The notes under the pieces were generated by a model. It made no database searches and was not told where the DNA came from. It was given only the letters and a program-made list of their open reading frames with translations. From the NCBI GenBank assembly GCA_947468665.1, contig CANILH010000003.1, positions 13,961 to 77,960 on the forward strand: a stretch of DNA of 64,000 bases, read 5' to 3'. Shown here piece after piece: positions 4,986-37,999 of the stretch. Origin of the DNA: Oligoflexales bacterium (lineage in GTDB: Bacteria; Bdellovibrionota_B; Oligoflexia; Oligoflexales; RGVZ01). Both the position numbers and the translations under genes were made by a program. How positions within the stretch are numbered: position 1 is the stretch's first letter; the number at the start of each line of letters is the position of its first letter.

Positions 4986-6995
4986 ATGACCACCATCGAT
5001 CAAATCTCAAAGAGCCCCCGCGTTAAGGTTGACGCATTTGAGACAAATCTTCCTGTCCCGCCAAAAATGGATTCCAAGTACCGCCGCGCACCCACCAGGG
5101 GCTATCACCTCGATGAGAAAGACACCAAGCTCGCTCTCGCGAACGCGCTGAGATATATTCACCCGAAATTTCACAAAGATCTTCTGCCGGAATTTCTTGA
5201 TGAGCTAAAAACACGTGGCAGGATCTACGGATACCGATTCAGGCCGGAAGGCGCGATCTTGGGACGGCCCGTTTCGGAGTACAAAGGAAAATGTCTGGCA
5301 GGCAAAGCCCTGCAGGTAATGATTGATAACAACCTTGATTTTGAGATAGCCCTTTATCCCTATGAATTGGTCACATATGGTGAGACCGGTCAGGTCTGCC
5401 AGAACTGGATGCAATACCTTCTGATTAAACGCCACCTGGAAGAACTCACGGACGACACGACGCTTGTACTTTACTCCGGTCACCCGGTGGGACTTTTCAA
5501 ATCCCACGCGGCGGCACCGCGGGTCATCACCACCAACGCGCTCATGATTGGCTTGTTCGATAACCCTAAAGACTGGCACCGCGCCGCCGCTATCGGTGTC
5601 GCTAATTACGGACAGATGACTGCTGGCGGGTGGATGTATATCGGTCCTCAGGGCATTGTACATGGAACCTTCAACACCATCATGCTCGCGGGTCGCCTGA
5701 AACATGGCCTCAAACACAACGAGAACATGGGCGGCCGCTTATTTGTCTCCAGTGGTCTTGGCGGCATGAGTGGCGCCCAGGGTAAAGCCGTCGCCATCGC
5801 CGGGTGTGCTGGAATCATCGCGGAAGTTGATCCATCACGAATCGAGACAAGACTCAGCCAGGGCTGGGTCGACGTCGTAGCTAAAACCGCGAAGGAAGCT
5901 TTTGATCTCGCAAGCGACGCTATGACCAAAAAACAAGGACGAGCCATCGCATTTGAGGGCAATATTGTTGACCTGCTTCAATACGCGGTCACAAATAGCG
6001 TCAAAATCGATCTTCTTACGGACCAGACTAGCTGCCACGCTGTATATGAGGGTGGCTACTGCCCCCAAGGGCTGACCTTTGGCGAACGTACAGAAATGCT
6101 CGCCACGGACATCACAAATTTCAATCAACTGGTGGATGTGTCACTTAAAAAACACTACTCCTTGATTCACGCACTGACAGAACGCGGTACTTACTTCTTT
6201 GACTACGGAAACGCCTTCATGAAAAGCGTCTTTGACTCTGGCGTAAAAGACATCGCCAAAAACGGCATGGACACCCGGGACGGGTTTATCTGGCCGAGTT
6301 ATGTGGAAGATATTCTGGGGCCCGAGCTTTTTGATTACGGCTACGGACCATTTCGCTGGGTCTGTCTTTCTGGCGACAATAAAGATCTACAAAAGACCGA
6401 CGCAGCCGCCGCAGAGGTAATCAAGACTCTCCGCGTCAAGATGCGTTATCAGGATGAGGACAACTACAACTGGGTACGGGACGCCGAAAAAAACAAACTG
6501 GTAGTTGGCACGAAATCCCGTATTCTTTACCAGGACGCCAAAGGCCGCCGCGCTATCGCACTGAAATTTAACGACATGGTTCGCAAAGGCGATGTCGGCC
6601 CCATCATGCTGGGCCGTGATCACCATGACACCGGCGGTACGGACTCTCCATTCCGGGAAACGAGCAACATCAAAGACGGGTCAAACATCATGGCCGACAT
6701 GGCGACCAATGTTTTCGCCGGTAACGCCGCCCGCGGCATGACACTTTGCGCCCTGCACAACGGCGGAGGTGTTGGCATCGGCAAGTCCATCAACGGAGGT
6801 TTTGGAATGCTGCTGGATGGATCCACTCGCGTGGATGCGATTCTTGATACGGCGATCCCGTGGGACGTCATGGGCGGCGTCGCGCGACGGGCCTGGGCCC
6901 AAAACCCCCACTCTATTGAGACATGTATTGAGTTTAATGAAGAAAATAACGGGCGTGGTGAGTACATTACGCTGCCTTGGCCTGTCGACATCTGA
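4986..6995 (+). CDS. hutU: urocanate hydratase, long (~670 aa) form
   Basis: 669 aa with conserved urocanase blocks (GQMTAGGWMYIGPQGIVHGT, GLGGMSGAQ, GRDHHDTGGTDSP). Carries a ~100-aa N-terminal extension relative to typical ~555-aa bacterial HutU. Confidence 0.9.
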   Translation: MTTIDQISKSPRVKVDAFETNLPVPPKMDSKYRRAPTRGYHLDEKDTKLALANALRYIHPKFHKDLLPEFLDELKTRGRIYGYRFRPEGAILGRPVSEYKGKCLAGKALQVMIDNNLDFEIALYPYELVTYGETGQVCQNWMQYLLIKRHLEELTDDTTLVLYSGHPVGLFKSHAAAPRVITTNALMIGLFDNPKDWHRAAAIGVANYGQMTAGGWMYIGPQGIVHGTFNTIMLAGRLKHGLKHNENMGGRLFVSSGLGGMSGAQGKAVAIAGCAGIIAEVDPSRIETRLSQGWVDVVAKTAKEAFDLASDAMTKKQGRAIAFEGNIVDLLQYAVTNSVKIDLLTDQTSCHAVYEGGYCPQGLTFGERTEMLATDITNFNQLVDVSLKKHYSLIHALTERGTYFFDYGNAFMKSVFDSGVKDIAKNGMDTRDGFIWPSYVEDILGPELFDYGYGPFRWVCLSGDNKDLQKTDAAAAEVIKTLRVKMRYQDEDNYNWVRDAEKNKLVVGTKSRILYQDAKGRRAIALKFNDMVRKGDVGPIMLGRDHHDTGGTDSPFRETSNIKDGSNIMADMATNVFAGNAARGMTLCALHNGGGVGIGKSINGGFGMLLDGSTRVDAILDTAIPWDVMGGVARRAWAQNPHSIETCIEFNEENNGRGEYITLPWPVDI

Positions 6996-7062
6996 TTGCA
7001 CAGTTGAGCCACTATATATCCCCAAAATCGCAGGCCGTTTTTGCTGACGGCACTTTCCGCGA

Positions 7063-7857
7063 TTAATTAGCGCGATTCACACCAACTTGAGGGCTGTGTG
7101 TCACATCTATTGGCACGCCAATCATGTTTTGTTTAACCTCGAAATTACCCATGGGGGCGAATGTTCCGCTGGCGTAACATTCATCGCCGCCATCACAAAC
7201 CTCAGTCCGCGTCCCGCACTTTTGATTTTCATCGGTAACGTAAACACGAAGTGCCGCTTTATGAGTGGTAATTGACAGGACTGTCTTTAGTGACTTTCCA
7301 TCGTTCTCGTATTCAATTGGTGTGAGATTAAAAAAAGCCTCGTTTCGTTCTGAAAGGTATGAGAACCCAAGCCCGGCGGTACCATCTTGCTTCGTTAATT
7401 GTTGGGCCTTCAAGCTATCAGAGTCAGAATAATGCCCAGACATCTCGGCGCCATTCCTGATTTCAGACGCGGGATCAAAGACCACCCAAAAAACCTGAAC
7501 TGGCATTCTTTTTGTGGAGACGTCGTTCTTTTTCTGCGCCGCGAATGCGCATATTCCATCAGGATTTCTACCGACAGCCGCGTCTATTAGGATCGCATCT
7601 TTCCATCTTGAGAACGTTATCGTGAGCAGAGACTTACGCTCAGCTTGCTCGTTTACTACCGGGGCAAAAGCGGCAGCGGGGGAGTCAGATACATGGCTGA
7701 CACCAACGGGTGATTTCGCGATGCCGCACGATGTCAGCACTATTGTCGCGAGGCAAACCGCCGCGAGGGTCTTTGTCGACATCTGGTCGGCCAGGGCGCT
7801 GGCCTTTTTGAGTGTTGAAAACATTTGAGGATCCTCCTGGTAAAGTTTTTGTGGCAA
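7063..7857 (-). CDS. hypothetical lipoprotein
   Basis: 264-aa ORF with lipobox-like IVLTSCG after a hydrophobic stretch. The real start is probably an internal Met (MFSTLKK or MSTKTL). No recognisable domain. Confidence 0.5.
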   Translation of the reverse strand: MPQKLYQEDPQMFSTLKKASALADQMSTKTLAAVCLATIVLTSCGIAKSPVGVSHVSDSPAAAFAPVVNEQAERKSLLTITFSRWKDAILIDAAVGRNPDGICAFAAQKKNDVSTKRMPVQVFWVVFDPASEIRNGAEMSGHYSDSDSLKAQQLTKQDGTAGLGFSYLSERNEAFFNLTPIEYENDGKSLKTVLSITTHKAALRVYVTDENQKCGTRTEVCDGGDECYASGTFAPMGNFEVKQNMIGVPIDVTHSPQVGVNRAN

Positions 7858-7871
7858 CTGGTCGTGTTTTA

Positions 7872-9290
7872 TTAATTTGCCCCGAGATTCAGCATCTTCG
7901 AAATTTTTGCTGTAACCGCGGCGAATTCAGACGGCTCACCGTTTATCGCCGTAATTGTCAGCTGATCGTCCCTGGCTGTCGCGGTCGCGAGACGAACCGG
8001 TAGCCACGCGGCCATTTTCTTCCTGAGCGGCTCGATCGCGAACGATTTGGAAGTCGCGATGAGCTTCCAGCGGGCAGTCAAATACTCGGTCAATTCAGCA
8101 TGAATCGCGCCAGAAGCTTGTTCTTTGGCTTCGAGAGCATCCGGGATAACAATGGTAAGGCCATTGGTTGGGTCGGCTTTCAGCGTCACAGGAACTGTGA
8201 CGAATATGTTTTTATAAGTTTTCCCGTTTGTCTCAATCTGATCGAAATTGAACGTTAAGCTGATCACATCGTCCTGGAATGTCACCTCGACCGGTTTCTC
8301 GGCTGAAAAACGCATAACAACTTCGTCAGGCGATCCAATCAGATCTTCGGGTATTTCATATTCACCATGGGCTTTGACCAATGCGGTCAGTATTTCCATG
8401 TCGGATAACGTGAGGCCGGCCATATAGACTTTGGTCAGGTCTTTGACATAGTCAGGTCTGATTCTTATCGCCGCGGCCTGATTTCCAGAGGGATTAAGCT
8501 GCAGACCTTGATGCTGGTCATTGCTTGGAACATAGACATAAGCTGTTTGGTTGGTCGAATAGAATTTCATGGCATGCGGAAGTAGTCCGCTTCCAGTTGT
8601 CGCCTTATAGATCCAATCTTTCCACATGGTCGTGACCTTTTGAACCATACCCACGGTTTTTGAGTCCAAAAGATCATTTATTGTAGTTACGGCGCGCTCT
8701 GAAATTTCGCGTTCATTTTTGGGAATTTGATTAGCCAATTCCTCTTGAGCTTTACGGTAACCAATTCTTGTCTTTAACCGGCGGAAGAGTCCTTCCGCCC
8801 AGACATCAAGATTATTTACAGTCAGCTTCGTGGCCGCGTTCGTCGATGCCCCATAAGACTTAAGCCCGGAGTCATCGAGAAAGAAACACTTATTAGACGA
8901 CGTGTGGGTAAGGGCAACAGCGTCAGTCCGGACGAAAACCCGCGCGGGACCAGCGATTTGAGCGTCGATGTCACTGTGAATAATTGTATTCGCGTTAAGA
9001 CAAAACCCCAGTCCCGACTTACCCGTGCGCCATGGATTTACCAGCGCATTGCCCTTAGCGTTAATTAATGTGGAAATATCGGCGCCTCCAATACTCGTAT
9101 TCACCTGCTGCGTCGTATTGATAGGTAACGTTGTAAGTTTATTCAAAAACTGGCCAGAGATCGCCAACTCAAGATTTGGCGGAGAGTCGGTTTGCGCCTG
9201 GAGGCATACCGGCGTAATGGACAAAAGACCAAGCGTTATCGCTTTAGCCACTAAGGCCCGGTGTTTGGATGCGTTAGCTGATGAGTTCAT
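7872..9290 (-). CDS. hypothetical secreted protein
   Basis: 472 aa. Signal-peptide-like N-terminus (ALVAKAITLGLLSITPVCLQAQT). Long uninterrupted ORF 14 bp upstream of the next gene. No recognisable motif. Confidence 0.55.
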   Translation of the reverse strand: MNSSANASKHRALVAKAITLGLLSITPVCLQAQTDSPPNLELAISGQFLNKLTTLPINTTQQVNTSIGGADISTLINAKGNALVNPWRTGKSGLGFCLNANTIIHSDIDAQIAGPARVFVRTDAVALTHTSSNKCFFLDDSGLKSYGASTNAATKLTVNNLDVWAEGLFRRLKTRIGYRKAQEELANQIPKNEREISERAVTTINDLLDSKTVGMVQKVTTMWKDWIYKATTGSGLLPHAMKFYSTNQTAYVYVPSNDQHQGLQLNPSGNQAAAIRIRPDYVKDLTKVYMAGLTLSDMEILTALVKAHGEYEIPEDLIGSPDEVVMRFSAEKPVEVTFQDDVISLTFNFDQIETNGKTYKNIFVTVPVTLKADPTNGLTIVIPDALEAKEQASGAIHAELTEYLTARWKLIATSKSFAIEPLRKKMAAWLPVRLATATARDDQLTITAINGEPSEFAAVTAKISKMLNLGAN

Positions 9291-27199: not shown

Positions 27200-28009
27200 A
27201 TGGGACTCTTTACTGGTAAAAAAGGCATCATTATGGGTGTCGCCAACGAATACTCTCTCGCCTCCGGCGTGGCGGACTTCCTCAAAAAAGAAGGCGCTGA
27301 GATCGGCCTGAGTCACCTGCCAGATAAAGAAGGCGGCCCCGCTAAAATGCTCCGCCGCGTCATGCGTGTTGCCGAACCACTCGGAATCACATTTGTCAGG
27401 CCATGCGACGTAAGCAATGACGCCGACATTGCCCGCTTCTTCGGCGAAGTGCGTGAACAGTTTGGAACTATTGATTTCTTTGTACACTCAATCGCTTACG
27501 CCCCCATGGACGACATCAAGTGTGCCACCATTGACGCCAGCCGCGCTGGTTTCCTTAACGCGATGGACATCAGCTGCTACAGCTTTATCGCCTGTGCCCG
27601 CGCCGCAGCTCCCCTCATGGAAAAGGGCGGATCGATGGCGACTATGACCTACTACGGCGGCGAGCGGGTCGTCGGCGGATACAACCTCATGGGTCTCTGC
27701 AAAGCAGCTCTTGAATCCGCTACGAAATATCTTGCCTGGGATCTTGGGCCTAAAGGCATCAGAGTTAACGCGGTAAGTGCCGGCCCCGTCAAAACACTTG
27801 CGTCATCAGCAGTTGGAGCTGGTGAGATGCTTGACATGTATCAGTCCATCGCCCCCATGGGACGCAACATCAGCGCTGCGGAAGTTGGTAAATCTACAGG
27901 GTTTCTTCTCAGTGATCTGGCCTCTGCTACAACTGGCGAGACGCTCCACGTTGATTGTGGATATCATGTGATGGGAAGTCCGGGTCGGGCCCTCCTCAAC
28001 GATAAATAA
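27200..28009 (+). CDS. fabI: enoyl-ACP reductase FabI
   Basis: 269 aa. Motifs GKKGIIMGVANEYSLASGVA, catalytic Y..M.....K in YNLMGLCKAALES, and AVSAGPVKTLA. Confidence 0.9.
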   Translation: MGLFTGKKGIIMGVANEYSLASGVADFLKKEGAEIGLSHLPDKEGGPAKMLRRVMRVAEPLGITFVRPCDVSNDADIARFFGEVREQFGTIDFFVHSIAYAPMDDIKCATIDASRAGFLNAMDISCYSFIACARAAAPLMEKGGSMATMTYYGGERVVGGYNLMGLCKAALESATKYLAWDLGPKGIRVNAVSAGPVKTLASSAVGAGEMLDMYQSIAPMGRNISAAEVGKSTGFLLSDLASATTGETLHVDCGYHVMGSPGRALLNDK

Positions 28010-28242
28010 CCCCCCCCCGTACCCTTCATTGCGGCGTTTAGCTAAAATCAGGTACTTACGACGGCCTGTTCTCATCAAATTCTAATTATTAACAATTCTC
28101 ATCGGATTCTAATGATTATCTAAACATTCAAAATTACTTAACAAATAATTTTAAGCTTGCAATAGAGTTACCCTTTCCCGTAAACCGGTAGGACAAGAAA
28201 TAATCACTGATGATTTTTTGAACTGGGCTGGAGGGGACAACA

Positions 28243-28992
28243 ATGCAAGTTTCATTGCAGGGTAAAAACATACTCATCACGGGTGGCGTCCGGGGAATTG
28301 GGCGAGCCATGACTGAAGCTGCGGCAAAAGCCGGCGGGCACGTCATAGCAACTTATTTGAGCAACGAGGCTACGGCGAAAGACGTCATAGGCGGCCTTCA
28401 ATCACAGGGTCTTAATGTCCATGCTTGCAAACTTGATGTTCGCGACTCCAAACAAGTCGACGAGGCTGTTGCCGCTCTCGAATCCGAGTACGGCCCGATC
28501 GAAGTGCTTATCAATAACGCCGGAATCGTCAAAGACGGTTTACTCATGGCAATGGAAGACGACGACTGGAATGACGTGCTCAATACGAACCTTGGTGGCG
28601 CGTTCCATGTTACGAGAGCAGTCGCGCGACAGATGATTCGTGCCCGTCGCGGTCAGATCATTAACATTTCCTCAGTCGCGGCATCTCGACCGGGTCGCGG
28701 TCAAGTCAACTATGCGGCCTCCAAAGGCGGTATTGAGGCTGCCACCAAGGCGCTCGCCGTTGAACTCTCATCACGCAACATTCGCGTTAACTGCATCGCT
28801 CCCGGTGTCATCACCACAGAAATGAGCCAGGACGTGCGCGAGGCGGCCGGGGATAAAATCCTCGAAAGCATTCTCCTGAAGCGGTTCGGAAACCCGGAAG
28901 ACATCGCCAATATGGCGGTATTTCTGGCATCTGATCTCGCTTCATACATCACGGGCGAAGTTATCCACATTGATGGTGGATTGAAGCTGTAA
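28243..28992 (+). CDS. fabG: 3-oxoacyl-ACP reductase (FabG-type SDR)
   Basis: 249 aa. Motifs GKNILITGGVRGIGRA, NNAG, S..(13)..YAASKGG and PGVITTEM. Confidence 0.85.
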   Translation: MQVSLQGKNILITGGVRGIGRAMTEAAAKAGGHVIATYLSNEATAKDVIGGLQSQGLNVHACKLDVRDSKQVDEAVAALESEYGPIEVLINNAGIVKDGLLMAMEDDDWNDVLNTNLGGAFHVTRAVARQMIRARRGQIINISSVAASRPGRGQVNYAASKGGIEAATKALAVELSSRNIRVNCIAPGVITTEMSQDVREAAGDKILESILLKRFGNPEDIANMAVFLASDLASYITGEVIHIDGGLKL

Positions 28993-29041
28993 CAAGGCTA
29001 TTCGTAACAACGATTTTATTAACGTAAGAAAGGAACACATC

Positions 29042-29479
29042 ATGCAAACCACATTCGAGAAAATCCAGGACATCGTCGTAGAAGCTCTCTACTGCGATAA
29101 AGAGCAGGTAACCCGCGAAGCAAACCTGATGGCCGATCTTGGAGCAGAGAGTATTGATTTCCTCGATATCGTATTCCGTCTTGAAAAAGCGTTCGGTATC
29201 AAAATGCCAAAAGGTGACATTGAGCTCCGAGCCAGAGGCGACCTCGCCGAGGGTGAGTTCGAGGTTCACGGCGTCCTTCAGGAAAAAGGTCTCGCGCGCC
29301 TGAAAGCCATTATGCCAGAGGTCGATCCAACTAAAGTTAAAGCAGGTCTGCGTGTCAAAGACATCGCGACACTCTTTACCGTCGCTACTTTTGAGCGCAT
29401 GGTTCTCGAGCGTTTGGGCGACCAACCTCAGGCGACCACGACTACAGCACCAGCACGGGCCTCATTGGGCACCGTCTGA
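29042..29479 (+). CDS. acyl carrier protein, extended form (145 aa)
   Basis: Phosphopantetheine site LGAESIDFLDIVFRLEKAFGI (Ser in the D/E-S-x-D context). A ~45-aa insertion lies before the last helix, plus a Thr/Ala-rich tail. Canonical ACPs are ~78 aa. Confidence 0.75.
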   Translation: MQTTFEKIQDIVVEALYCDKEQVTREANLMADLGAESIDFLDIVFRLEKAFGIKMPKGDIELRARGDLAEGEFEVHGVLQEKGLARLKAIMPEVDPTKVKAGLRVKDIATLFTVATFERMVLERLGDQPQATTTTAPARASLGTV

Positions 29480-29524
29480 ATTTATAAACCCTGAGATCTT
29501 CAACCAAATGAGGAAATCCCGGTA

Positions 29525-30385
29525 ATGCGTTTCTTATTCGTCAGTCAAATAACCCAAATTGACGGCCAGAAAATCCGCGGTCAGGTGGAGTTTTCTGACC
29601 AAGAGCCGTGGCGTCATACAAATGCCAAAGGCGACGTCTGTATCAATAACAGTGTCGTCTCTGAGGCTGTTGGGCAACTTGTGTCCTGGATGGCGCTCCG
29701 CGACAATGACTTCAAGGGTCGCCCGGTATTCCTGTTCCTGGACCGCATCCATTTTCAGGGCAGCGTGCCTGCTCCCGGAGTTGTTGACCTTGAGGCCTGG
29801 ATCAGCAACCGCGACGAGGACTCGTTTATCTTCTCTGGTACGGCGAAGGTTAACGGTCAAACAGTTCTGGAGATTACTGACAGCGGCGGATACTTCATGC
29901 CACTCGCAGAGCTGGAGGATCCCGCTGTCACCCGCCAGCGTTTTGAAACGCTGACCTCAACAGGCATCGGGGCGAACCCTTCAGGACCTCAATTTGACAC
30001 CACTCAGCTGGTTGATGAGATTAAAGACCTAACTCCTGGTCAGACGGTCTCGGCTATTAAAGTAATGCGACTGGACGAGCCGTTCTACGCCGATCACTTT
30101 CCAAGATTTCCTGTTACGCCAATCGTGGTCATCAACGAGATGATCATGGAAGCCACGAGGCGAATGATGACCGGGATCGGCGCTGAGCCGGGCTCCAAGT
30201 CGCGCGGAATCGAGCCGGTCGCGGTTCAAGATCTCAAAATAAAGTCGTTTATCCGCCCAGGCGATACGGCAATAACAAATGTAAAAGTTGTCGAACGAAT
30301 TGGCGACGAGTTTGAGGCCATTTCAGAGATTCTTATCAACAAAAAAAGAATCCTGCGCGGTCGCTATCGCTATCGTTTTATTTGA
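29525..30385 (+). CDS. double-hotdog beta-hydroxyacyl-ACP dehydratase (FabA/FabZ-like)
   Basis: 286 aa, twice FabZ length. The C-terminal half carries FYADHFPRFPVTPIVVINEMIMEA (His-Phe-Pro dehydratase motif). The N-terminal half lacks it. Confidence 0.65.
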   Translation: MRFLFVSQITQIDGQKIRGQVEFSDQEPWRHTNAKGDVCINNSVVSEAVGQLVSWMALRDNDFKGRPVFLFLDRIHFQGSVPAPGVVDLEAWISNRDEDSFIFSGTAKVNGQTVLEITDSGGYFMPLAELEDPAVTRQRFETLTSTGIGANPSGPQFDTTQLVDEIKDLTPGQTVSAIKVMRLDEPFYADHFPRFPVTPIVVINEMIMEATRRMMTGIGAEPGSKSRGIEPVAVQDLKIKSFIRPGDTAITNVKVVERIGDEFEAISEILINKKRILRGRYRYRFI

Positions 30386-30408
30386 CGGCAACATTAAAGG
30401 AGAATCAC

Positions 30409-31674
30409 ATGCGTTCACAAAAAAGACGCGTTGTCATTACAGGCGTTGGCGCTGTGACACCAGCCGGCAACACCATGAACGAAACCTGGAACGGCATTAT
30501 CGAGGGCAAAAAAAACGTCCGCCCCATTGAGATGTTTGAGGCATCGGCCTTCCCGTGTAATTTCGCGTACCAGGTCAGAGACTTCGAACTCAATCGACTG
30601 GGTCTTGAAGATCCTGAGCGTCCAAAACTTCTTAATCGCGCCGGAGAATTCGGCTGGAACGCGGCCATCGAGGCGGCGACCCAATCCAATATTCTGGAAA
30701 ATGGCCAAACCAATCCGCTCCGAACCGCTGTTTGTCTGGGAGTTGGCGTTGGCAGTCCAACGCTGGCCTGGCATCAATCGGTTTACATGACCGAAAAATT
30801 CGACGGTGACGATTATACTCCTTACCACCGTAAACACTTCCCAAATACACTTTCGACTCTCGTCGCTAGCCTGGTCAATGCGAAAGGCGCGACCGTGACT
30901 ATACATACCGCATGCGCGTCTTCCGGCCAGGCGCTGGGAGAGGCTTATGACATGATCGTCTGTGGTGACTATGACGTTGTCATGACGGGCGGCGCTGACT
31001 CCATGATCAATCCATTCCAGATGGCCGGGTTTTGCCTTTTGGGCGCTCTGTCATCACGGAGTTCCAATCCACAAAGCGCGTCCCGTCCATTTGACGCCGA
31101 TCGTGACGGATTTGTACTCGGCGAGGGTGCCTGCATGTTCGTTTTTGAGGACTATGATCACGCCAAAGCAAGAGGCGCGACGATCATTGGTGAAATTTGT
31201 GGTTACGGTGTAACCGAATCCGCTTACCGGATTACCGATCTCCACCCAGAGGGACGTGGTGTTATCGAGTCAATGGAAACAGCGTTAAAGGACGCGGGTA
31301 TAAGTCCGGAACAGGTCGGCTACATTAACGCCCACGGCACGTCGACACTTCTGAACGATAAAGTCGAATCCCTCGCGATCAGCAAAGTGTTCAACCGTGA
31401 CACCTGCCAAACCAAAGTTTCCAGCACCAAGAGTACGACAGGACATTTAATCTCCGCCGCCGGCGCTATCGAATTCGCGGTAGCCATGATGTCCCTGAAA
31501 CACCAGGTATTCCCACCATCGGTTAACTTAATCAATCAGGACACCTCCTGTGAGATCAATCTGACACCATCAACCCCAACCCCAACGCCAATGACCGCGT
31601 CCTACGCGCTTTCCAACTCGGTCGGTTTTGGCGGATCAAACACCTCGCTTATCGCGCGGAGGGTCCAGCTATGA
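30409..31674 (+). CDS. beta-ketoacyl-ACP synthase (FabF/KAS II-like, catalytic)
   Basis: Cys-His-His triad contexts all present: HTACASSGQALG, INAHGTSTLLND and STKSTTGHLISAAG. ATG at 30409 has AAAGGAGA 5 nt upstream, so it is preferred to the TTG at 30382. Confidence 0.9.
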   Translation: MRSQKRRVVITGVGAVTPAGNTMNETWNGIIEGKKNVRPIEMFEASAFPCNFAYQVRDFELNRLGLEDPERPKLLNRAGEFGWNAAIEAATQSNILENGQTNPLRTAVCLGVGVGSPTLAWHQSVYMTEKFDGDDYTPYHRKHFPNTLSTLVASLVNAKGATVTIHTACASSGQALGEAYDMIVCGDYDVVMTGGADSMINPFQMAGFCLLGALSSRSSNPQSASRPFDADRDGFVLGEGACMFVFEDYDHAKARGATIIGEICGYGVTESAYRITDLHPEGRGVIESMETALKDAGISPEQVGYINAHGTSTLLNDKVESLAISKVFNRDTCQTKVSSTKSTTGHLISAAGAIEFAVAMMSLKHQVFPPSVNLINQDTSCEINLTPSTPTPTPMTASYALSNSVGFGGSNTSLIARRVQL

Positions 31675-32855
31675 CAAATAACAATAATCAACGCCAGGTG
31701 GTTGTCACCGGTCTCGGTATGCTAACAGCCCATGGCCTTGGCGTTAGCGCCAACCTTGAGCCATTTACCGCCACGCACACGCGAAAAACTCAGGAAGACC
31801 TGAAAGTCGTTGGCTTCAATCCGGCACCGCACCTTACAGACCGCAAAGTCGTTAAAGTGGTTTCCCACCGCGACGTACTTGGCCTTGTGGCATTTGAGGA
31901 ATGCGTCAGGAATTCCGGTTTATCCTCAAAAACCATCAATCCTGACCGGACTGGTCTTTACGTTGGAGCGCCACCATCGTCCTGCGTTGACCATCACAAT
32001 TATAATGAGAGCATTGAGGCCTCAATTGATCAGATCGGCAAACTGAACGAGAGAATTTTCGGTGATCACTTCCGCTCGGCAAGCCCGACGACTTTGCTTA
32101 CTGGTCTTCCCAATAACGTGCTCTGTTATGGCGCCAAGACACTCGATGCCCGTGGACCAAACTCAAACTATACGACTCTCGAGTCGAGCGCGCACATGGC
32201 CATTATAGGTGCAATCCGTTCCATCAGGCTTGATCGCCTTGATTGCGCGATCGCTGGTGGCTATACAGCCCATAGCGATAAGGTATTCGCCGCGGCGATG
32301 AAGCAACGCGGCATGGCCGACGGCACCCCGATCGCTGAGGGCGCGGCATTTGCGACTCTTGAGACACGTGAGAATGCCGAAAAACGCGGCGCGACTGTAC
32401 TGTGTGAGATTCTGGCATGTGGCGCCGCGAGTGACGCCACCGGACCATACCGCTCCAACTCTGCTGACCCAGCTCTCACCGAGCTAATACGCCAGACGAT
32501 GGCTAACGCCGGCATTTCAATGGACCAAATCGAGGTGGCCATGACAACAGGAAGCGGCATCGCTTGCGTCGAAGACGCAGAATCCGTGTCGATCAATCAA
32601 ATTTGGAATGCCGCGTATAAACCCGTGATCGCGTCGACCGCGACCCGCTGGGGAAACCTTATGGAAGCCGGCGGTGTCGCCGATATCGGATTCCTTCACA
32701 CCTGCTACGCGCATAAATCCATTCCCGAGTCCACCGCGGTCGGTGATTTGGGTCGTTTATCCAGTTTTGACGCGACACGCGGCCATGCTTTAATCCTAAG
32801 ATCAACACCATGGGGTGAATACTCCTGTGTCATCATCAAATTGGAGAATCTATGA
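31671..32855 (+). CDS. KS-like partner lacking the catalytic triad (chain-length-factor-like)
   Basis: 394 aa with thiolase-fold layout (QVVVTGLGMLTAHG at the N-terminus). The Cys position reads TTLESSAHMA. The two His positions read AMTTGSGI and ASTATRWGNL. The start overlaps the KS stop by 4 bp. Confidence 0.7.
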   Translation: MTNNNNQRQVVVTGLGMLTAHGLGVSANLEPFTATHTRKTQEDLKVVGFNPAPHLTDRKVVKVVSHRDVLGLVAFEECVRNSGLSSKTINPDRTGLYVGAPPSSCVDHHNYNESIEASIDQIGKLNERIFGDHFRSASPTTLLTGLPNNVLCYGAKTLDARGPNSNYTTLESSAHMAIIGAIRSIRLDRLDCAIAGGYTAHSDKVFAAAMKQRGMADGTPIAEGAAFATLETRENAEKRGATVLCEILACGAASDATGPYRSNSADPALTELIRQTMANAGISMDQIEVAMTTGSGIACVEDAESVSINQIWNAAYKPVIASTATRWGNLMEAGGVADIGFLHTCYAHKSIPESTAVGDLGRLSSFDATRGHALILRSTPWGEYSCVIIKLENL

Positions 32856-33223
32856 AGGGAATCGGTGTTGACACAGTTGCCATGACCAAATTTCAGAACG
32901 TCATGGTTGGTTCGGGAAGCGGATTTATCGAGCATGTATTTACCTCTAATGAGCGTAAGTACTGCGCTGGATCAGCTAATCCCTGCGAGTCATTTGCCGG
33001 TCATTTTGCCGCCAAAGAAGCGCTGGTCAAAGCCATTCCAGCACTTCGGAGTCACGGCATTGACTGGAAGGATATTGAGGTAACTCACAATAATTTCGGC
33101 GCGCCTCAATTCATCGTAAACGACCGTATCAAAGAAAACCTCGAGCGGATCAACGCCTCGTCGATCCTTCTGTCTATCTCCCACACTCACGAAACAGCCG
33201 TCGCGATGGTAGCGGTTCTCTAA
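32852..33223 (+). CDS. acpS: holo-ACP synthase (4'-phosphopantetheinyl transferase, AcpS type)
   Basis: 123 aa. Motifs MKGIGVDTV, FAAKEALVKA, GAPQF and LSISHTHETAVAMV. 4-bp overlap with the upstream gene. Confidence 0.85.
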   Translation: MKGIGVDTVAMTKFQNVMVGSGSGFIEHVFTSNERKYCAGSANPCESFAGHFAAKEALVKAIPALRSHGIDWKDIEVTHNNFGAPQFIVNDRIKENLERINASSILLSISHTHETAVAMVAVL

Positions 33224-34393
33224 ATGAAAGGACAGCCCATGAATATATTGGTCACCGGAGGAAGCGGATTCCTTGGAACAGCGTTGCTCCCGAAACTCGT
33301 CAAAGACAAAAACGTCGCTCGCGTCATTTTATTGATGCGCGACTCGATGCGCGAAACCGCCATCGAGCGTCTTACCGGCCTCATTAACAACGTGTTTATA
33401 CCCGCTGACCGCGCACTGGCTCAAAATAAAATTGAGATTATCGCCGGCGACCTAACTCTCGACAACATGGGTTTTGACCCGTTTACCATGGAGCGTCTGA
33501 GTGGCGAATGTACGCATATTCTTCATATTGGCGCCAGCACCGACTTTGCCGCGCCTCTTGATCTCTCACGTCACATCAATGTTGACGGAACCAGAAAACT
33601 GCTGGAATTTGCGCTGATTTGTCAGCGCAAGGGAAAACTTCAGCGCCTTGACTATGTCTCAACAGCGTTTGTCGCCGGCACAAAATCAGGAATTGTCACC
33701 GAGGACGATCTTGAGCGCGACCAGAAATTCGCGAACTCATACGAACAAAGTAAGTATGAAGCTGAGATTCTGGTCCGAGAGCATATGGACTTTCTGCCAA
33801 TCACCATTCTGCGCCCATCAATCGTAGTTGGCGACTCGCGCAATGGCTTCACGCCGCACTTTAAGGTCTTATATTGGCCGCTACAGCTTCTCTCCAAAAA
33901 CATATTACCATTTGTGCCATGTCGCCGGGGTGCCCGCCTTGATATCGTGCCCGTGGACTTCGTCGCGACAGCGATGCACAAAATCATGAACTCGCCGACC
34001 AGTCTGGGCCAGACTCTCTATCTTACCGCGGGCGCGAATCAGACCATTCGAATTGACCATTTCCTCGATAACGCGTTCCGCCAAACTAAGATTCAGAGGC
34101 GGCCGTTGATTCCTATCTGGATGTTTAAGGTTCTCCGTGGGACGTGGCTTCGTAAAGTTATGTCAGAGAGCTTCTGGGAAACATGCCAGCTCGCGTCCGT
34201 CTATAATGATTACCTTGCGGGTACAAACGTGACGTTTGACAACTCCAAATCAACTAAGTTTCTCAGATCAGTTGGAGCCCGTCCGGCCCCTCATTGGGGC
34301 ACCTACGGCGACGCCATCCTGAAATTTTGTACTGAGAGCCGCTGGGGAAAACGCCTCGCCATGCCGGAGTGTGAGTACCGTAATCCAGTGTGA
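33224..34393 (+). CDS. stand-alone thioester/fatty-acyl reductase (NAD_binding_4, extended SDR)
   Basis: Motifs NILVTGGSGFLGTALLPKL, YEQSKYEAE (YxxxK), ILRPSIVVGDSRNG and LDIVPVDFVATAM. Alternative start at the ATG at 33239. Immediately follows acpS. Confidence 0.75.
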   Translation: MKGQPMNILVTGGSGFLGTALLPKLVKDKNVARVILLMRDSMRETAIERLTGLINNVFIPADRALAQNKIEIIAGDLTLDNMGFDPFTMERLSGECTHILHIGASTDFAAPLDLSRHINVDGTRKLLEFALICQRKGKLQRLDYVSTAFVAGTKSGIVTEDDLERDQKFANSYEQSKYEAEILVREHMDFLPITILRPSIVVGDSRNGFTPHFKVLYWPLQLLSKNILPFVPCRRGARLDIVPVDFVATAMHKIMNSPTSLGQTLYLTAGANQTIRIDHFLDNAFRQTKIQRRPLIPIWMFKVLRGTWLRKVMSESFWETCQLASVYNDYLAGTNVTFDNSKSTKFLRSVGARPAPHWGTYGDAILKFCTESRWGKRLAMPECEYRNPV

Positions 34394-34491
34394 TGACGCT
34401 GAATGGCGACTTCAGCTAATTAGCGAACCTCAAATCCAAACATCATTCCGGTCCCGAGATGCTCGCTGATATGACAGTGTCCCATCCAGCG
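34366..34491. repeat. direct repeat copy A (126 bp) bracketing the low-GC insertion
   Basis: Matches 36201-36326 at a constant offset of 1835 bp with 5 mismatches. 82 bp (34381-34462) are identical. Contains the live 3' end of the reductase gene plus a dead copy of the multicopper oxidase 3' end. Confidence 0.95.
34420..34491 (-). pseudogene. orphan 3'-terminal fragment (23 codons + stop) of the multicopper oxidase gene
   Basis: The minus strand reads RWMGHCHISEHLGTGMMFGFEVR*, identical in protein to the C-terminus of the 36255..37763 gene. The upstream sequence diverges abruptly at 34492. Confidence 0.85.
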
Positions 34492-34567
34492 CCGACGCTG
34501 TGGACCGCCGAAACAGCGACATGGTATGCATCCGCAAACCCCTGCTTTTGCGAGGCGCGTAACATAG

Positions 34568-35053
34568 TCAAACTTTGATCTTTTTAAGGATCTCACGCAG
34601 GTGTAAAAGGGCCTCTTTGTCCTTTGGACGTGACATTATTTCCTTAATGCTTATTAGATCCTCTAATGACACAACTTTGCAGTCATGACCGTATAGCCTT
34701 ATTGTGACTGCGCGACGACTTACAGCTTGAAAATCGCCAATTGGCTGTAGCTCAGACATCATATCGAGAATCCCAAGACTTGTTTCCAAGTAAATATTCT
34801 TGAGTTCATTACTTCGTTTGGGGTGATCAAGAAATGAAGGCTTGAAATTGGGATTCATTCTAAACCTTGGGTCGAGGTCTTTCAGAGCTTCTCGTAATTT
34901 TGCAATCTGCAAATCGTCAAAGAAAACACAGACATCGACATCTTGTGTAACGAGTGGGGAACCGTGAACAACACAAGCAAGCCCGCCGGCAAGAACAAAA
35001 TCCACATCATGGTCGAGGAGTCTTTTAAGCAGGGCCTTTAGATTGTCGCGCAT
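34568..35053 (-). CDS. nucleotidyltransferase-fold protein (toxin-antitoxin-type small NTase)
   Basis: 162 aa from the ATG at 35053 (AAGGAG 4 nt upstream). Motif DVDFVLAGGLACVVHGSPLVTQDVDVCV (GG-x-A-x3-HG-x7-D-x-D) and C-terminal VSLEDLISIKEIMSRPKDKEALLHL. About 37-40% GC against ~52% in the flanks. Confidence 0.65.
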   Translation of the reverse strand: MRDNLKALLKRLLDHDVDFVLAGGLACVVHGSPLVTQDVDVCVFFDDLQIAKLREALKDLDPRFRMNPNFKPSFLDHPKRSNELKNIYLETSLGILDMMSELQPIGDFQAVSRRAVTIRLYGHDCKVVSLEDLISIKEIMSRPKDKEALLHLREILKKIKV

Positions 35054-35237
35054 AGTACTCCTTGCCTGCTTGCATAAGATCATTAACAAGTTCGCGGGCC
35101 AGTTCATGAGCATCCATCCTTTGCTCATGCGTAAGAGACAAAAGATGCGCGACAAGCGAGGCATCAATATGAACAACATCCCCTTGGCCTCGGTCAAGTG
35201 TATTGATTGGATCTGCTAAGTCTCTTTGGGTCACCAA
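35025..35237 (-). CDS. small partner protein of the NTase (putative cognate antitoxin/toxin)
   Basis: 70 codons with a TTG/GVG-type start and AAGGAA 9 nt upstream. Overlaps the NTase start by 29 nt. Helical sequence LTHEQRMDAHELARELVNDLMQAGKE. No independent homology is recognisable by eye. Confidence 0.4.
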   Translation of the reverse strand: MVTQRDLADPINTLDRGQGDVVHIDASLVAHLLSLTHEQRMDAHELARELVNDLMQAGKEYYARQSKGPA

Positions 35238-35902
35238 AATTGCAACTTCCTTGCCTATTTATAGTTATGTTGGCCAAACTTCGAAAGAACCTAAAACTAT
35301 GCCCATCCTGCTTGACGTGCTTTGAAAATCTTTCCATCAACTGCCATGTCAAATTCCCTAAGCTCCACCCCAAATGTATTCTTATGAGCTCGCATTGTTC
35401 CCGACCGAATGAACACCAAGATGGGTAAATTAGATCACTGATGAAGTACCAATCCCTCCGCCAGTATTACCAACTCCTGCGCTGGAGTTACATGAAATAT
35501 TGTCGTTTGCTTGCGCTCTAAGTAACGGGACAAGTGCCATTATCCAAGACGTTCCAACCTACCAATTTTACATGTTAATTCTAGTCTTCGCAAAGGGTTC
35601 TGACGCCATTTGGTGTGATTTTCAGATCTTAGCGTTGCTGCTGATTACGAAACCTGAATTTGGGCACAAAGTGCACAAATCTTCAGATTGGCTGGATACT
35701 TTGTGCACAAAACTCCCTTATTCCACGCCTCACAAATTGCCTGAAAATTGGCGCCAAAAAAATCTTTAGAAGTAGAAACAGCTATTTAGCTTCGATTTCT
35801 ATCGCTTCGTCAAAAGTTGGCACGCTTCGACCCCCTTTACTTATTGAGGGCTGAAAATACTCACGCGCCGATGTTGGCGCCAGGAACAAGGGGTGTGAGG
35901 TC

Positions 35903-36108
35903 ATGCAAAGAAAAAGATGCGCAATCAATTTACCAGTTGATGCGTTCACAACGTGCCCGTCATGTCGCAGCTCGGACTATCTCCGAGAAATATCTTCGAT
36001 GTCTACTGCCACTGCTGTGGCTGGGATAGCTCGTCAGCATTTGTGGAAGCCGGTGGTCTCGATGATCTGATCTTCGAATATGAAATGGATCTTAAGCGAA
36101 TGGCTTGA
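35903..36108 (+). pseudogene. possible frameshifted Cys4 zinc-ribbon gene
   Basis: Frame 1 (35903-36070) begins MQRKRCAINLPVDAFTTCPSCRSSDYLRE.... Frame 3 (35962-36108) continues ...NIFDVYCHCCGWDSSSAFVEAGGLDDLIFEYEMDLKRMA. Joined near 35985-35990 they give CPSC-x13-CHCC. Neither half reaches 60 aa. Confidence 0.25.
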
Positions 36109-36200
36109 AAACGTCTTGCGGATCGGCGTGAGCGCTTGGTTGACGGGCTGATTGTTGATTACAGTATCGCAGCGTGACTTTTTGGACAGAACGCGGTACG

Positions 36201-36326
36201 GGAGTATGAGTACCATAATCCAGTGTGATGACGCTGAATGGCGACTTCAGCTAATTAGCGAACCTCAAATCCAAACATCATTCCGGTCCCGAGATGTTCG
36301 CTGATATGGCAGTGCCCCATCCAGCG
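36201..36326. repeat. direct repeat copy B (126 bp)
   Basis: Partner of 34366-34491. Contains the live 3' end of the multicopper oxidase gene and a dead, diverged copy of the reductase tail (…REYEYHNPV* versus live …PECEYRNPV*). Confidence 0.95.
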
Positions 36327-37763
36327 ACCAGGGTTTTGATTGTCCAAAACGACTTCAACGGACTGACCAGCCGGGACAAGTACGGTGTCTTTATAAACCC
36401 AATTTGACTCTGGTTTGTCATTGCGCGAGAGCACGACGAACCGCTGCCCATGAAAATGCATCGGGTGCTGCATGGGATGATGCTTGCCGTCATTAACGAT
36501 CCGGATTTTGACCGGCTTATTGCGGGTGAAAATCCAATTGATGTCCATATTCTCTTTACCGGTGTCGGCGTCAATGACGCGCCACGAGACGTCCTTATCA
36601 GTCATATCCTCACTCATACCTGGCATGGGGTCTTCCCATTCGATGCCATCAGAGCCCATTGACCCGCTCATGACGTGATCGGCGTGTTGACCTCTGAGGG
36701 TCGCGTCAATTTTCATCGTATAATCGGGTTTAGCGTCGCGCAGTGCGAGTAATGGCTTGATCTCAGCCATAATCGCGGGTCGCTCCATCAGGGAATTAAA
36801 CGGAGGGTGAGGACTTGCCAGACGTGACTTCGCTCCGACAGTCACGCGCCCAAGGATTTGTTTTACTTTAGGGCCAATATTCTCAAGCCTTGAGACACCC
36901 TTTTCCTTAAACAGAACGTCCACCACGGCACGCTCACTGGGGGCAAGGACAATCTCATCAACAAGTGAGTCCTTCGTATAAAGCCCTCCGTCCGCGCCAA
37001 CCAGCTTCATCTGAGTGCCCGTGAAGCGTAGCTTAAATGGCCGGGCATTGGCCGTATTCGTAAGCCAAAATCTTATGACGTCATCCTGCCGGGCTTTGGT
37101 CGTCCACGCGGCCTTGTTATTGACAAGATTAATTGAGCCATAACGCCCCATAAGAGCATAAGATAACGTGCCCTCCTTAAATCCCGGCAGTTTGCCATCC
37201 TCAACAAGAAGATCATCGATAACAAGAACCTCCTCACGGTCAACTTTAGGGAGTTGTGAAAGATCGCTGTCAACAACCCAGTAGTTACCCTGCAAACCCA
37301 TTTCCTGACCGTACTCGTCGCTCATGTGCGGGTGGTACCAAAAAAGCCCCGCGTCCGGAAACTTGAGGTCATAGACATGAGAGGCGCCATCAAGAATTGG
37401 CTCCTGACCAATGCCAACAACCCCGTCATTTTTGTCGTCAACCCGTAAACCATGGGAGTGTAGTGACGTGGGCTCACCAGTTTTATTTATCAATTTTAAT
37501 TTTATTTTCGCCCCTTTGGGCGCGACAATCATGGGTCCGGGAATCATGCCGTTATAAGCTAGTCTGGTGATCCAGCGCTTACCGATTTTATCCCGTACAA
37601 AACCCTCCGTAAGGTCAATAGAGTCACCGTCCTTGACGCGGATAATCTCTGATGCCACTGCGGTGGGAAGCCCCGATGGCGGGGGGATTTTCCGCGCTCC
37701 TGCCGCGAATGCCGCCGGAGTCAAAAACACAGAAATGGCCAGAAAAACCCGTGGCAGGGGCAT
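36255..37763 (-). CDS. multicopper oxidase (CueO/CopA-like)
   Basis: Copper-ligand motifs HSHGLRV, WYHPH, HPMHFHGQ and HCHISEHLGTGMM. Signal peptide from the Met at 37763 (MPLPRVFLAISVFLTPAAFAAG), preferred to the ORF-track start at 37817. Confidence 0.9.
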   Translation of the reverse strand: MPLPRVFLAISVFLTPAAFAAGARKIPPPSGLPTAVASEIIRVKDGDSIDLTEGFVRDKIGKRWITRLAYNGMIPGPMIVAPKGAKIKLKLINKTGEPTSLHSHGLRVDDKNDGVVGIGQEPILDGASHVYDLKFPDAGLFWYHPHMSDEYGQEMGLQGNYWVVDSDLSQLPKVDREEVLVIDDLLVEDGKLPGFKEGTLSYALMGRYGSINLVNNKAAWTTKARQDDVIRFWLTNTANARPFKLRFTGTQMKLVGADGGLYTKDSLVDEIVLAPSERAVVDVLFKEKGVSRLENIGPKVKQILGRVTVGAKSRLASPHPPFNSLMERPAIMAEIKPLLALRDAKPDYTMKIDATLRGQHADHVMSGSMGSDGIEWEDPMPGMSEDMTDKDVSWRVIDADTGKENMDINWIFTRNKPVKIRIVNDGKHHPMQHPMHFHGQRFVVLSRNDKPESNWVYKDTVLVPAGQSVEVVLDNQNPGRWMGHCHISEHLGTGMMFGFEVR

Positions 37764-37999
37764 GGCGCAAGAACCCGGACGAATCCGCAAAATATTATTA
37801 TTTACCAATAATTTCATGATGTAACCTCATTCATTCCGCTTATAAACTAAAATCACTCGACAGACTGCCTTGAAGTTTGGCACAAAGGTGGCAGTTCTGG
37901 CCACAATGAAACATCGCCGGAGGTCGAGGATCAAGTATGTCGGTAGTCGGTCAAACAGAAAGCTCACAGCGTGGTGACGGGCTATTCGCCTGGCACGTG

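Follow-up and report, generated by a model that had tools for sequence, protein, structure and literature searches.

How does a short piece of foreign DNA that carries no recombinase gene come to lie between two 126-bp copies of the very gene junction that it interrupts? The question is raised by a small islet in a 64,000-nt stretch of contig CANILH010000003.1 from an Oligoflexales bacterium (the window, to whose positions all coordinates refer unless another locus is named by its L-number). The islet separates the 3' end of a thioester-reductase-family gene from that of a convergent multicopper oxidase gene, is bounded by a direct repeat of this junction (T; left copy T1, right copy T2), and encodes a nucleotidyltransferase together with a small presumed antitoxin (Table 1). 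We favor, at a probability of roughly 0.6, the explanation that a foreign chromosomal fragment of ∼1.7 kb was inserted at the convergent junction by 'insertion with long target duplication', by which 126 bp of the target were duplicated and the arrangement T-C-T was formed. This rare mode of insertion has been known since 2000 and is documented essentially only for restriction-modification systems. Our analysis suggests that the islet is an insertion of this kind with a MenAT-like cassette, and that the cassette family recurrently bears such duplications across phyla.

Anatomy of the direct repeat

Segments 34366–34491 and 36201–36326 are identical at 121 of 126 positions and lie at an offset of 1835 bp. 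This is in agreement with the original prediction, in which the repeat was described at the same positions with five mismatches. The mismatches are found at 34371, 34380, 34462, 34474 and 34480, and the identical core of T (34381–34461) measures 81 bp and not 82 bp as first counted. The predicted composition of the repeated unit was also confirmed: the final 28 bp of the reductase gene and the final 72 bp of the oxidase gene enclose a 26-bp spacer. The reductase stop codon is located at 34391–34393, the spacer contains a hairpin with a 6-bp stem (GCTGAA/TTCAGC, 34398–34416), and the oxidase 3' ends in both copies encode WMGHCHISEHLGTGMMFGFEVR*. No third copy of T is present in the window, where T is a two-copy sequence and not a dispersed repeat. 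Because T duplicates the junction, both host genes and their shared terminator hairpin have stayed intact despite the insert, with T1 completing the reductase and T2 completing the oxidase. Each copy also holds a dead fragment of the other gene. The reductase fragment in T2 has C→Y and R→H changes, and the 72-bp oxidase fragment in T1 matches Cu-oxidase_2 (E = 5.9e-6).

Many short contigs break in or near T (L001, L017, L026, L028, L034–L037), as would be the case if T were a collapsed or chimeric repeat, i.e. the assembly artefact that had been named at the outset as a possible refutation; such breaks are also expected for a repeat of this size. However, three contigs from different samples and assemblers (L009, 181 kb; L012, a MEGAHIT-style k141 contig from another study; and L013) each span both T copies with the same five variants, L009 being 100% identical to the window over 5.5 kb, and more than 15 further contigs show individual junctions of the islet. 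The exact protein sequences of the nucleotidyltransferase, reductase and oxidase moreover recur in several sample series, where dozens of metagenome contigs encode them. Since independent contigs cross both T copies, the islet is not an assembly artefact, and we regard an origin of T in assembly as extremely improbable.

The mismatches between the two copies cluster at the edges of T (p = 0.03 that randomly placed mismatches leave 81 bp or more uninterrupted), a pattern that fits later gene conversion of the core and a crossover between diverged copies equally well. The first 22 bp after T1 (from 34492) are identical at 12 of 22 positions to the oxidase sequence just beyond T2 (p = 0.003), which may be the trace of an illegitimate, homeology-guided joint. 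When the five differences are polarized with two outgroups, a 98%-identical strain whose contig ends inside T (L001) and a more distant relative (L002), the derived state lies with the dead fragments in three cases and with the working oxidase in the other two, which are synonymous. This is compatible with duplication in situ, followed by ∼2–4% divergence after the split from the L002 lineage. As a further candidate, a foreign allele was considered as the source of the oxidase fragment, since its three differences from the working copy are all synonymous. Polarity according to L002 assigns two derived states to the functional gene and one to the fragment, counts that are too small to prefer a foreign allele over duplication in situ and drift, and this candidate was not retained.

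A MenAT-like gene pair as cargo

The antitoxin-like gene and the MenT-like nucleotidyltransferase gene are the only intact cargo of the islet, the remainder of which is decayed. Residues G23, G24, D38 and D40 of the nucleotidyltransferase are invariant among 25 homologs. A sequence search of the PDB with this protein gave no match and fold comparison was therefore needed: the AlphaFold model (pLDDT 90.5) has its best PDB matches in MenT1 (8an5_B, E = 3.6e-7, TM 0.63–0.65; and 8an4). In 79 of 82 loci the nucleotidyltransferase gene is preceded and overlapped by the partner gene, whose product has a conserved helical motif, [IL]DxSL..NLxLSxEERIxxHExA. A small upstream partner that overlaps a nucleotidyltransferase gene of ∼160–190 aa is likewise the arrangement of MenAT1 of Mycobacterium tuberculosis, and the predicted fold and conserved GG...DxD catalytic motif are common to the window protein and MenT1. 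In contrast, sequence identity to MenT1 is only ∼22%, the Pfam families are DUF6036/DUF2204 instead of DUF1814, and the partner is without detectable similarity to MenA1. The pair is predicted by its fold to be a MenAT-like toxin-antitoxin system. MenT toxins extend tRNA 3' ends and thereby block translation (PMC10435456, PMC7450476). Searches of the cargo with PADLOC, PHROGs and NCBIfam gave nothing significant, the only match being a weak one to AbiEii (E = 0.013).

A closely related copy of the cassette is present in three contigs (L019–L021) in a different neighborhood, ∼0.8 kb from a gene for a tyrosine integrase of 420 aa. The DNA shared with these contigs is confined to the cassette itself, from 2 bp past the toxin stop codon to 20–30 bp upstream of the partner start. 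The 94% identity of the module to this copy from another setting implies that the cassette moves as a tight unit. The nucleotidyltransferase genes of the window and L019 differ by 15 synonymous and seven non-synonymous codons, which indicates purifying selection. The partner gene, compared with L019 5817–6029, differs by 13 non-synonymous and three synonymous codons, mostly in the N-terminal third, and evolves much faster than the nucleotidyltransferase gene; alternatively, its true start may lie downstream of the called TTG. The integrase gene of L019 (3607–5015) is adjoined by an excisionase-like open reading frame (ORF) of 49 aa. All three contigs break off ∼1.3 kb beyond the cassette, perhaps because of a repeat there.

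The cassette family is common in Bdellovibrionota/Oligoflexia and is also found in Opitutaceae, Gammaproteobacteria and other groups. With regard to a phage or plasmid vector, no relative of the family was found in IMG/VR, and only two distant plasmid matches were obtained.

Long duplications around the cassette in other genomes

Self-comparison of 80 genome loci revealed direct repeats that bracket the cassette in many of them. In a control with random placement, 8 of 77 species genomes had flanking repeats (30–264 bp) above the 99th percentile of 460 placements. In a gene-anchored control, repeats of at least 40 bits were present around 8 of 73 cassettes versus 2 of 331 neighboring ORFs (Fisher p = 2.7e-5). 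Among the species with repeat-flanked cassettes are Opitutaceae, Gammaproteobacteria and Bdellovibrionota. The repeat of one genome is not related to that of another, and repeat length varies across the whole range given above, so they are duplications of each local target and not parts of the cassette. Across the repeat-flanked cases no conserved cassette termini were found.

Five tightly flanked loci were analyzed closely (L129, L134, L149, L164 and L183). Their inserts measure 683–790 bp. Each starts 30–135 bp upstream of the partner gene, and at the other end the downstream repeat sets in 1–17 bp after the toxin stop codon. In three of the loci the upstream copy of the repeat is the true 3' end of an ordinary host gene, whose product is CobW (L164), phosphatidylserine decarboxylase (L149) or an alpha/beta hydrolase (L134); in L183, Pfam gave no match for the upstream ORF. 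The downstream copies are decayed, being 75–90% identical and containing indels. In four of the five loci the insert's GC content is 5–10 points below that of the surroundings, and L129 is without such a drop.

A separate observation was made in L156 from Opitutaceae (5379–7954), where three copies of a 100–200-bp target, the 5' end of a small membrane-protein gene, lie between the cassette and another insert that is unrelated to it. Such an arrangement points to either repeated insertion at a single site or unequal crossing-over.

Composition of the insert

The islet of the window is acquired DNA, as had been proposed. Its mean GC content is 45.3%, with the lowest 200-bp windows at ∼40.5%, versus 52% in the 10-kb flanks. 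The predicted drop below the flanks of ∼52% is thus real, and the 37–40% estimated by hand was too low. The toxin-antitoxin-like nucleotidyltransferase pair that had been read from the sequence is present and intact, with the MenT1-like fold described above. It forms part of a mosaic that otherwise contains orphan AT-rich DNA and a frameshifted zinc-ribbon pseudogene (Table 1).

Table 1. Features of the islet and of its two host genes in the window
Feature	Coordinates	Strand	Description
Thioester-reductase-family gene (left host gene)	33239–34393	+	Last gene of polyketide/aryl-polyene-like lipid cluster
Left repeat copy, T1	34366–34491		Working reductase 3' end 34366–34393; spacer hairpin 34398–34416; dead oxidase fragment 34420–34491
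Inserted DNA	34492–36200		1709 bp, GC 45.3%
Orphan GC-rich segment between T1 and cassette	34492–34565		74 bp, GC 59.5%
Two-gene cassette module	34566–35267	−	702 bp, 93.6–94% DNA identity to the L019–L021 copy in another context
Nucleotidyltransferase gene	34568–35053	−	161 aa, DUF6036/DUF2204 (Pfam), GG...DxD motif, MenT1-toxin-like fold (predicted)
Small partner gene, presumed antitoxin	35025–35237	−	70 aa, overlaps nucleotidyltransferase start
Orphan AT-rich non-coding stretch	35268–35743		∼480 bp, inverted repeat 35659–35672/35698–35711
Decayed zinc-ribbon gene and upstream region	35744–36108	+	ORF pieces 35903–36070 and 35953–36108, frameshift between them
Right repeat copy, T2	36201–36326		Dead reductase fragment 36201–36228; spacer hairpin 36233–36251; working oxidase 3' end 36255–36326
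Multicopper oxidase gene (right host gene)	36255–37817	−	Accessory, missing from 70% relatives

The AT-rich stretch has no relatives in any fetched locus (blastn, tblastx). Its 14-bp inverted repeat (TTTGGGCACAAAGT / ACTTTGTGCACAAA) bears three GTGCACAAA-like motifs and resembles an operator or iteron; no relative of this inverted repeat was found. Intact homologs of the zinc-ribbon gene encode proteins of 81–115 aa, and L187, in which the intact gene encodes the 91-aa P0242, has 80% DNA identity to the window over 35744–36087. The product in the window appears to end early, as P0242 extends ∼27 residues beyond the stop codon at 36106–36108. Relatives of this zinc-ribbon family are few, a handful among 1.8 billion representative proteins. 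In L187 a second gene for a small CxxC...CxxC protein (695–919) adjoins the zinc-ribbon gene.

The original prediction had found no integrase, transposase or terminal inverted repeats in the islet. Domain profile searches agree with it for integrase and transposase domains in the insert, and terminal inverted repeats on the insert are likewise absent. In the window, tblastn detected no homolog of the L019 integrase, and no tRNA or tmRNA target is present. Rfam searches identified no element, only a chance match at the level of miRNAs, and in a promoter and terminator scan the number of sites was no higher than in shuffled sequences. The argument that 126 bp is too long for the target duplication of a transposition event holds as well, and a transposon or insertion sequence was rejected on the grounds of missing terminal inverted repeats, missing transposase domain and duplications of 126 bp here and 30–264 bp elsewhere. 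An integron gene cassette was considered in addition, as toxin-antitoxin cassettes of integrons are similarly compact (∼0.7 kb with their own promoter) and bounded by repeats of ∼100 bp. However, T is built of the coding 3' ends of two host genes and is not attC-like (z −0.4 and −0.1), single-stranded DNA folds of T and of the insert ends on both strands were no better than those of shuffles, and neither IntI nor a cassette array is found in the window. This candidate was also rejected.

A decayed integrase-driven element, comparable to cis-mobilizable elements or to degenerate islets with attL and attR, would have arisen differently: its att site would have mimicked the junction, recombination within the 81-bp core would have produced attL and attR, and the integrase would since have been lost or would act in trans. 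Many genomic islands are bounded by long direct repeats. The islet resembles such elements in its small size, the lack of recombination genes, long repeats over gene 3' ends and a possible circular junction (L016, described below) that is similar to attP. The perfect core of T with mismatches only at its edges, the weak 22-bp similarity beyond one edge, and the 94%-identical cassette next to an integrase gene and an excisionase-like ORF in L019–L021 are also in line with this explanation. However, the window contains no cognate integrase or homolog of one, only the 702-bp cassette is common to the islet and the integrase-bearing locus, and no T-like repeat or shared element backbone is present in that locus. 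Furthermore, the zinc-ribbon pseudogene is cut near the junction, which suggests an arbitrary fragment and not a defined element end. The repeats that hug the cassette elsewhere are unrelated local host sequences of variable length, which an element-borne att site cannot give. The islet was accordingly not assigned to the integrase-driven elements, and we consider this origin rather unlikely.

A variable slot downstream of the reductase gene

In L002 the reductase has 89% protein identity and 81% DNA identity to that of the window, the islet and T are absent, and the reductase gene is followed by a gene for a 568-aa histidine kinase (L002 1812–3518) and then by the oxidase gene. In L003–L007, whose reductases are 70% identical, the reductase gene is followed directly by ApaG (L003 9164–9411), NlpD and SurE, and both oxidase and islet are absent. 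In L008 different genes come next to the reductase gene. A single copy of the reductase end is present in each of L002–L008, and a single copy of the oxidase end in L002. Judging from these comparisons, the slot after the reductase gene is a variable hot spot of gene-content change, and the islet is specific to the species-level lineage of the window. Apart from this small variable islet, the region is syntenic in the uncultured Bdellovibrionota/Oligoflexia-like freshwater bacterium. An arrangement common to all related genomes, which would have pointed to an old local duplication, is not what the relatives at 89% and 70% protein identity display.

The differing contents of the slot (nothing in L003–L007, histidine kinase and oxidase in L002, other genes in L008, islet and oxidase in the window) could also have been produced by homologous replacement between conserved flanks, with T as an unrelated local tandem duplication. 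Exchange of this type is reportedly known from the minimal mobile elements of naturally competent bacteria (Saunders and Snyder, 2002), which resemble this locus in that conserved genes enclose a variable slot, filled differently even in close relatives. However, exchange by flanking homology leaves no target duplication, as a double crossover in the flanks does not create one. Such an origin would call for two independent events that met precisely at the insert ends, and for the same coincidence around the cassette in eight other genomes, which makes this explanation quite improbable. The import of the islet together with its flanks from a relative, one of the two routes considered in the original prediction, fails for the same reason, as the double crossover that it involves would create no duplication.

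Logically, the two T copies imply that reductase → ← oxidase, separated by a 26-bp spacer, was the ancestral state, and to this extent the arrangement deduced earlier would hold; the direct junction itself was seen in no genome. The search for empty sites in related genomes, proposed as a check, yielded none in the contigs examined. The reductase-T-oxidase arrangement without the islet is absent from all contigs with an identical reductase or oxidase, which contain only occupied or T-broken sites. Scans of genome contigs with the reductase returned nothing, and scans of JGI metagenomes with the oxidase returned only relatives of at most 62% identity.

The lipid cluster that ends with the reductase gene (27200–34393) encodes ketoreductases, an acyl carrier protein, an ApeI-like FabA dehydratase, two ketosynthases, a phosphopantetheinyl transferase and the terminal thioester reductase. 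One of its ketosynthase genes is called split or shortened in some conspecific contigs (L010/L023 and L011/L024).

A possible junction of the two repeat copies

One contig of 1227 nt (L016) joins the right end of the islet (36139–36200) through a hybrid T to its left part (34492–35530) without a mismatch. The hybrid T has the variants of the right copy on its left side and those of the left copy on its right side. Such a junction is expected from recombination between the T copies, as an excised circle or a tandem duplication, and we treat it as a lead and not as evidence. L016 and L034 both begin at 36139, and L010 ends at 36177, which suggests a polymorphism or a branch point of the assembly graph just inside the right end of the islet in the KAVA23-1 samples.

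Proposed origin of the islet

According to insertion with long duplication of the target, a fragment of a donor chromosome that contained the cassette and its then-neighbors, including the zinc-ribbon gene, would have been inserted at the convergent junction with duplication of 126 bp. The first duplication would have been made without a transposase or integrase by a host-level process, i.e. a widely staggered break with fill-in, template switching in repair or replication, or illegitimate circularization followed by a single crossover. The passenger neighbors would subsequently have decayed, and the addiction pair would have been kept under selection. Recombination between the two T copies would delete the addiction module and be counter-selected, which would explain the persistence and the fixation in the population of the unstable T-C-T structure. 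The 81-bp perfect core could in addition support RecA-dependent excision as a circle (C and one T) or tandem amplification, and a single crossover could bring the circle back into an empty junction. The Campbell-type integration put forward in the original prediction has its place at this step: it can explain re-integration or spread from a one-repeat circle, for which L016 provides a candidate junction, and does not explain how the first duplication originated.

Several observations weigh against this explanation. At the junction itself no empty site was found and the nearest relative has another gene there, so that we infer the target duplication from the two copies. The cassette of L019 lies ∼0.8 kb from a tyrosine integrase gene, which leaves an integrase-driven history a minor share of the probability, and the clustering of T mismatches at the edges is also expected from att-type exchange between diverged sites. 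L016 could be a mis-join of a de Bruijn graph, as the 81-bp core exceeds common k values. The insert of 1709 bp is far larger than the 683–790 bp of the inserts elsewhere. Finally, T is ∼1.1 kb away from the cassette on one side, and the cassette may be a mere passenger of the inserted fragment.

Comparison with restriction-modification insertions

Insertion with long target duplication was described for restriction-modification gene complexes (Nobusato et al. 2000, Gene 259:99; Furuta, Abe and Kobayashi 2010, PMC2853133). In these cases the target duplications are long and variable (∼100 bp) and mobility genes are absent; the repeats range from 46 to >400 bp, frequently overlapping a gene's 3' end (PMC2853133, PMC3874152). 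Repeat-flanked units were noted by Kobayashi's group to be capable of amplification, and DNA double-strand breakage by the restriction enzyme was proposed by Furuta et al. as the common cause (PMC2853133). The class was delimited by a complete addiction unit without a mobility gene, an insert of <20 kb, a unique repeat of >30 bp and a single-copy empty site (Furuta et al. 2010). The islet has a complete pair without a mobility gene, an insert of 1709 bp and a repeat of 126 bp, and T is unique within the 64-kb window.

The resemblance includes a small addiction-type unit without a transposase or integrase, local-target repeats of tens to hundreds of base pairs that vary by site and frequently reach into a host gene's 3' end, an insert whose GC content departs from that of the genome, and repeats that could support amplification or excision. 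The islet differs in its cargo, a MenAT-like pair of a toxin class that acts on tRNA and not on DNA, in the decayed passenger DNA that the insert also holds, and in the empty site, which was not found at this locus. No report of this insertion mode for toxin-antitoxin systems was found in the literature searched, a statement limited to that literature.

Implications for addiction modules

As the toxin class acts on tRNA, the hypothesis that DNA breakage underlies insertions with long target duplication is weakened. Two alternatives may be envisaged. Such insertions may be made by a general host process and preserved by addiction modules, because recombination between the repeats would delete the module and kill the cell. 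Alternatively, the cassette may possess an unrecognized, recombinase-free mobility of its own. A stronger form of this idea, possible but doubtful, is that the antitoxin and MenT-like pair is a minimal mobile element of ∼0.7 kb without a recombinase, which spreads across phyla by long, variable target duplications. If so, circles or tandem arrays formed from the repeats would be intermediates of transfer and amplification, and L016 would be their first natural trace. The cassette is compact and widespread, and each of its insertions is accompanied by datable repeats, so it could be used to study the formation of such insertions and the excision of circles. If the pair is a minimal mobile element, insertion with long target duplication would be a host-repair pathway that addiction modules in general exploit or survive, and not a by-product of restriction cleavage.

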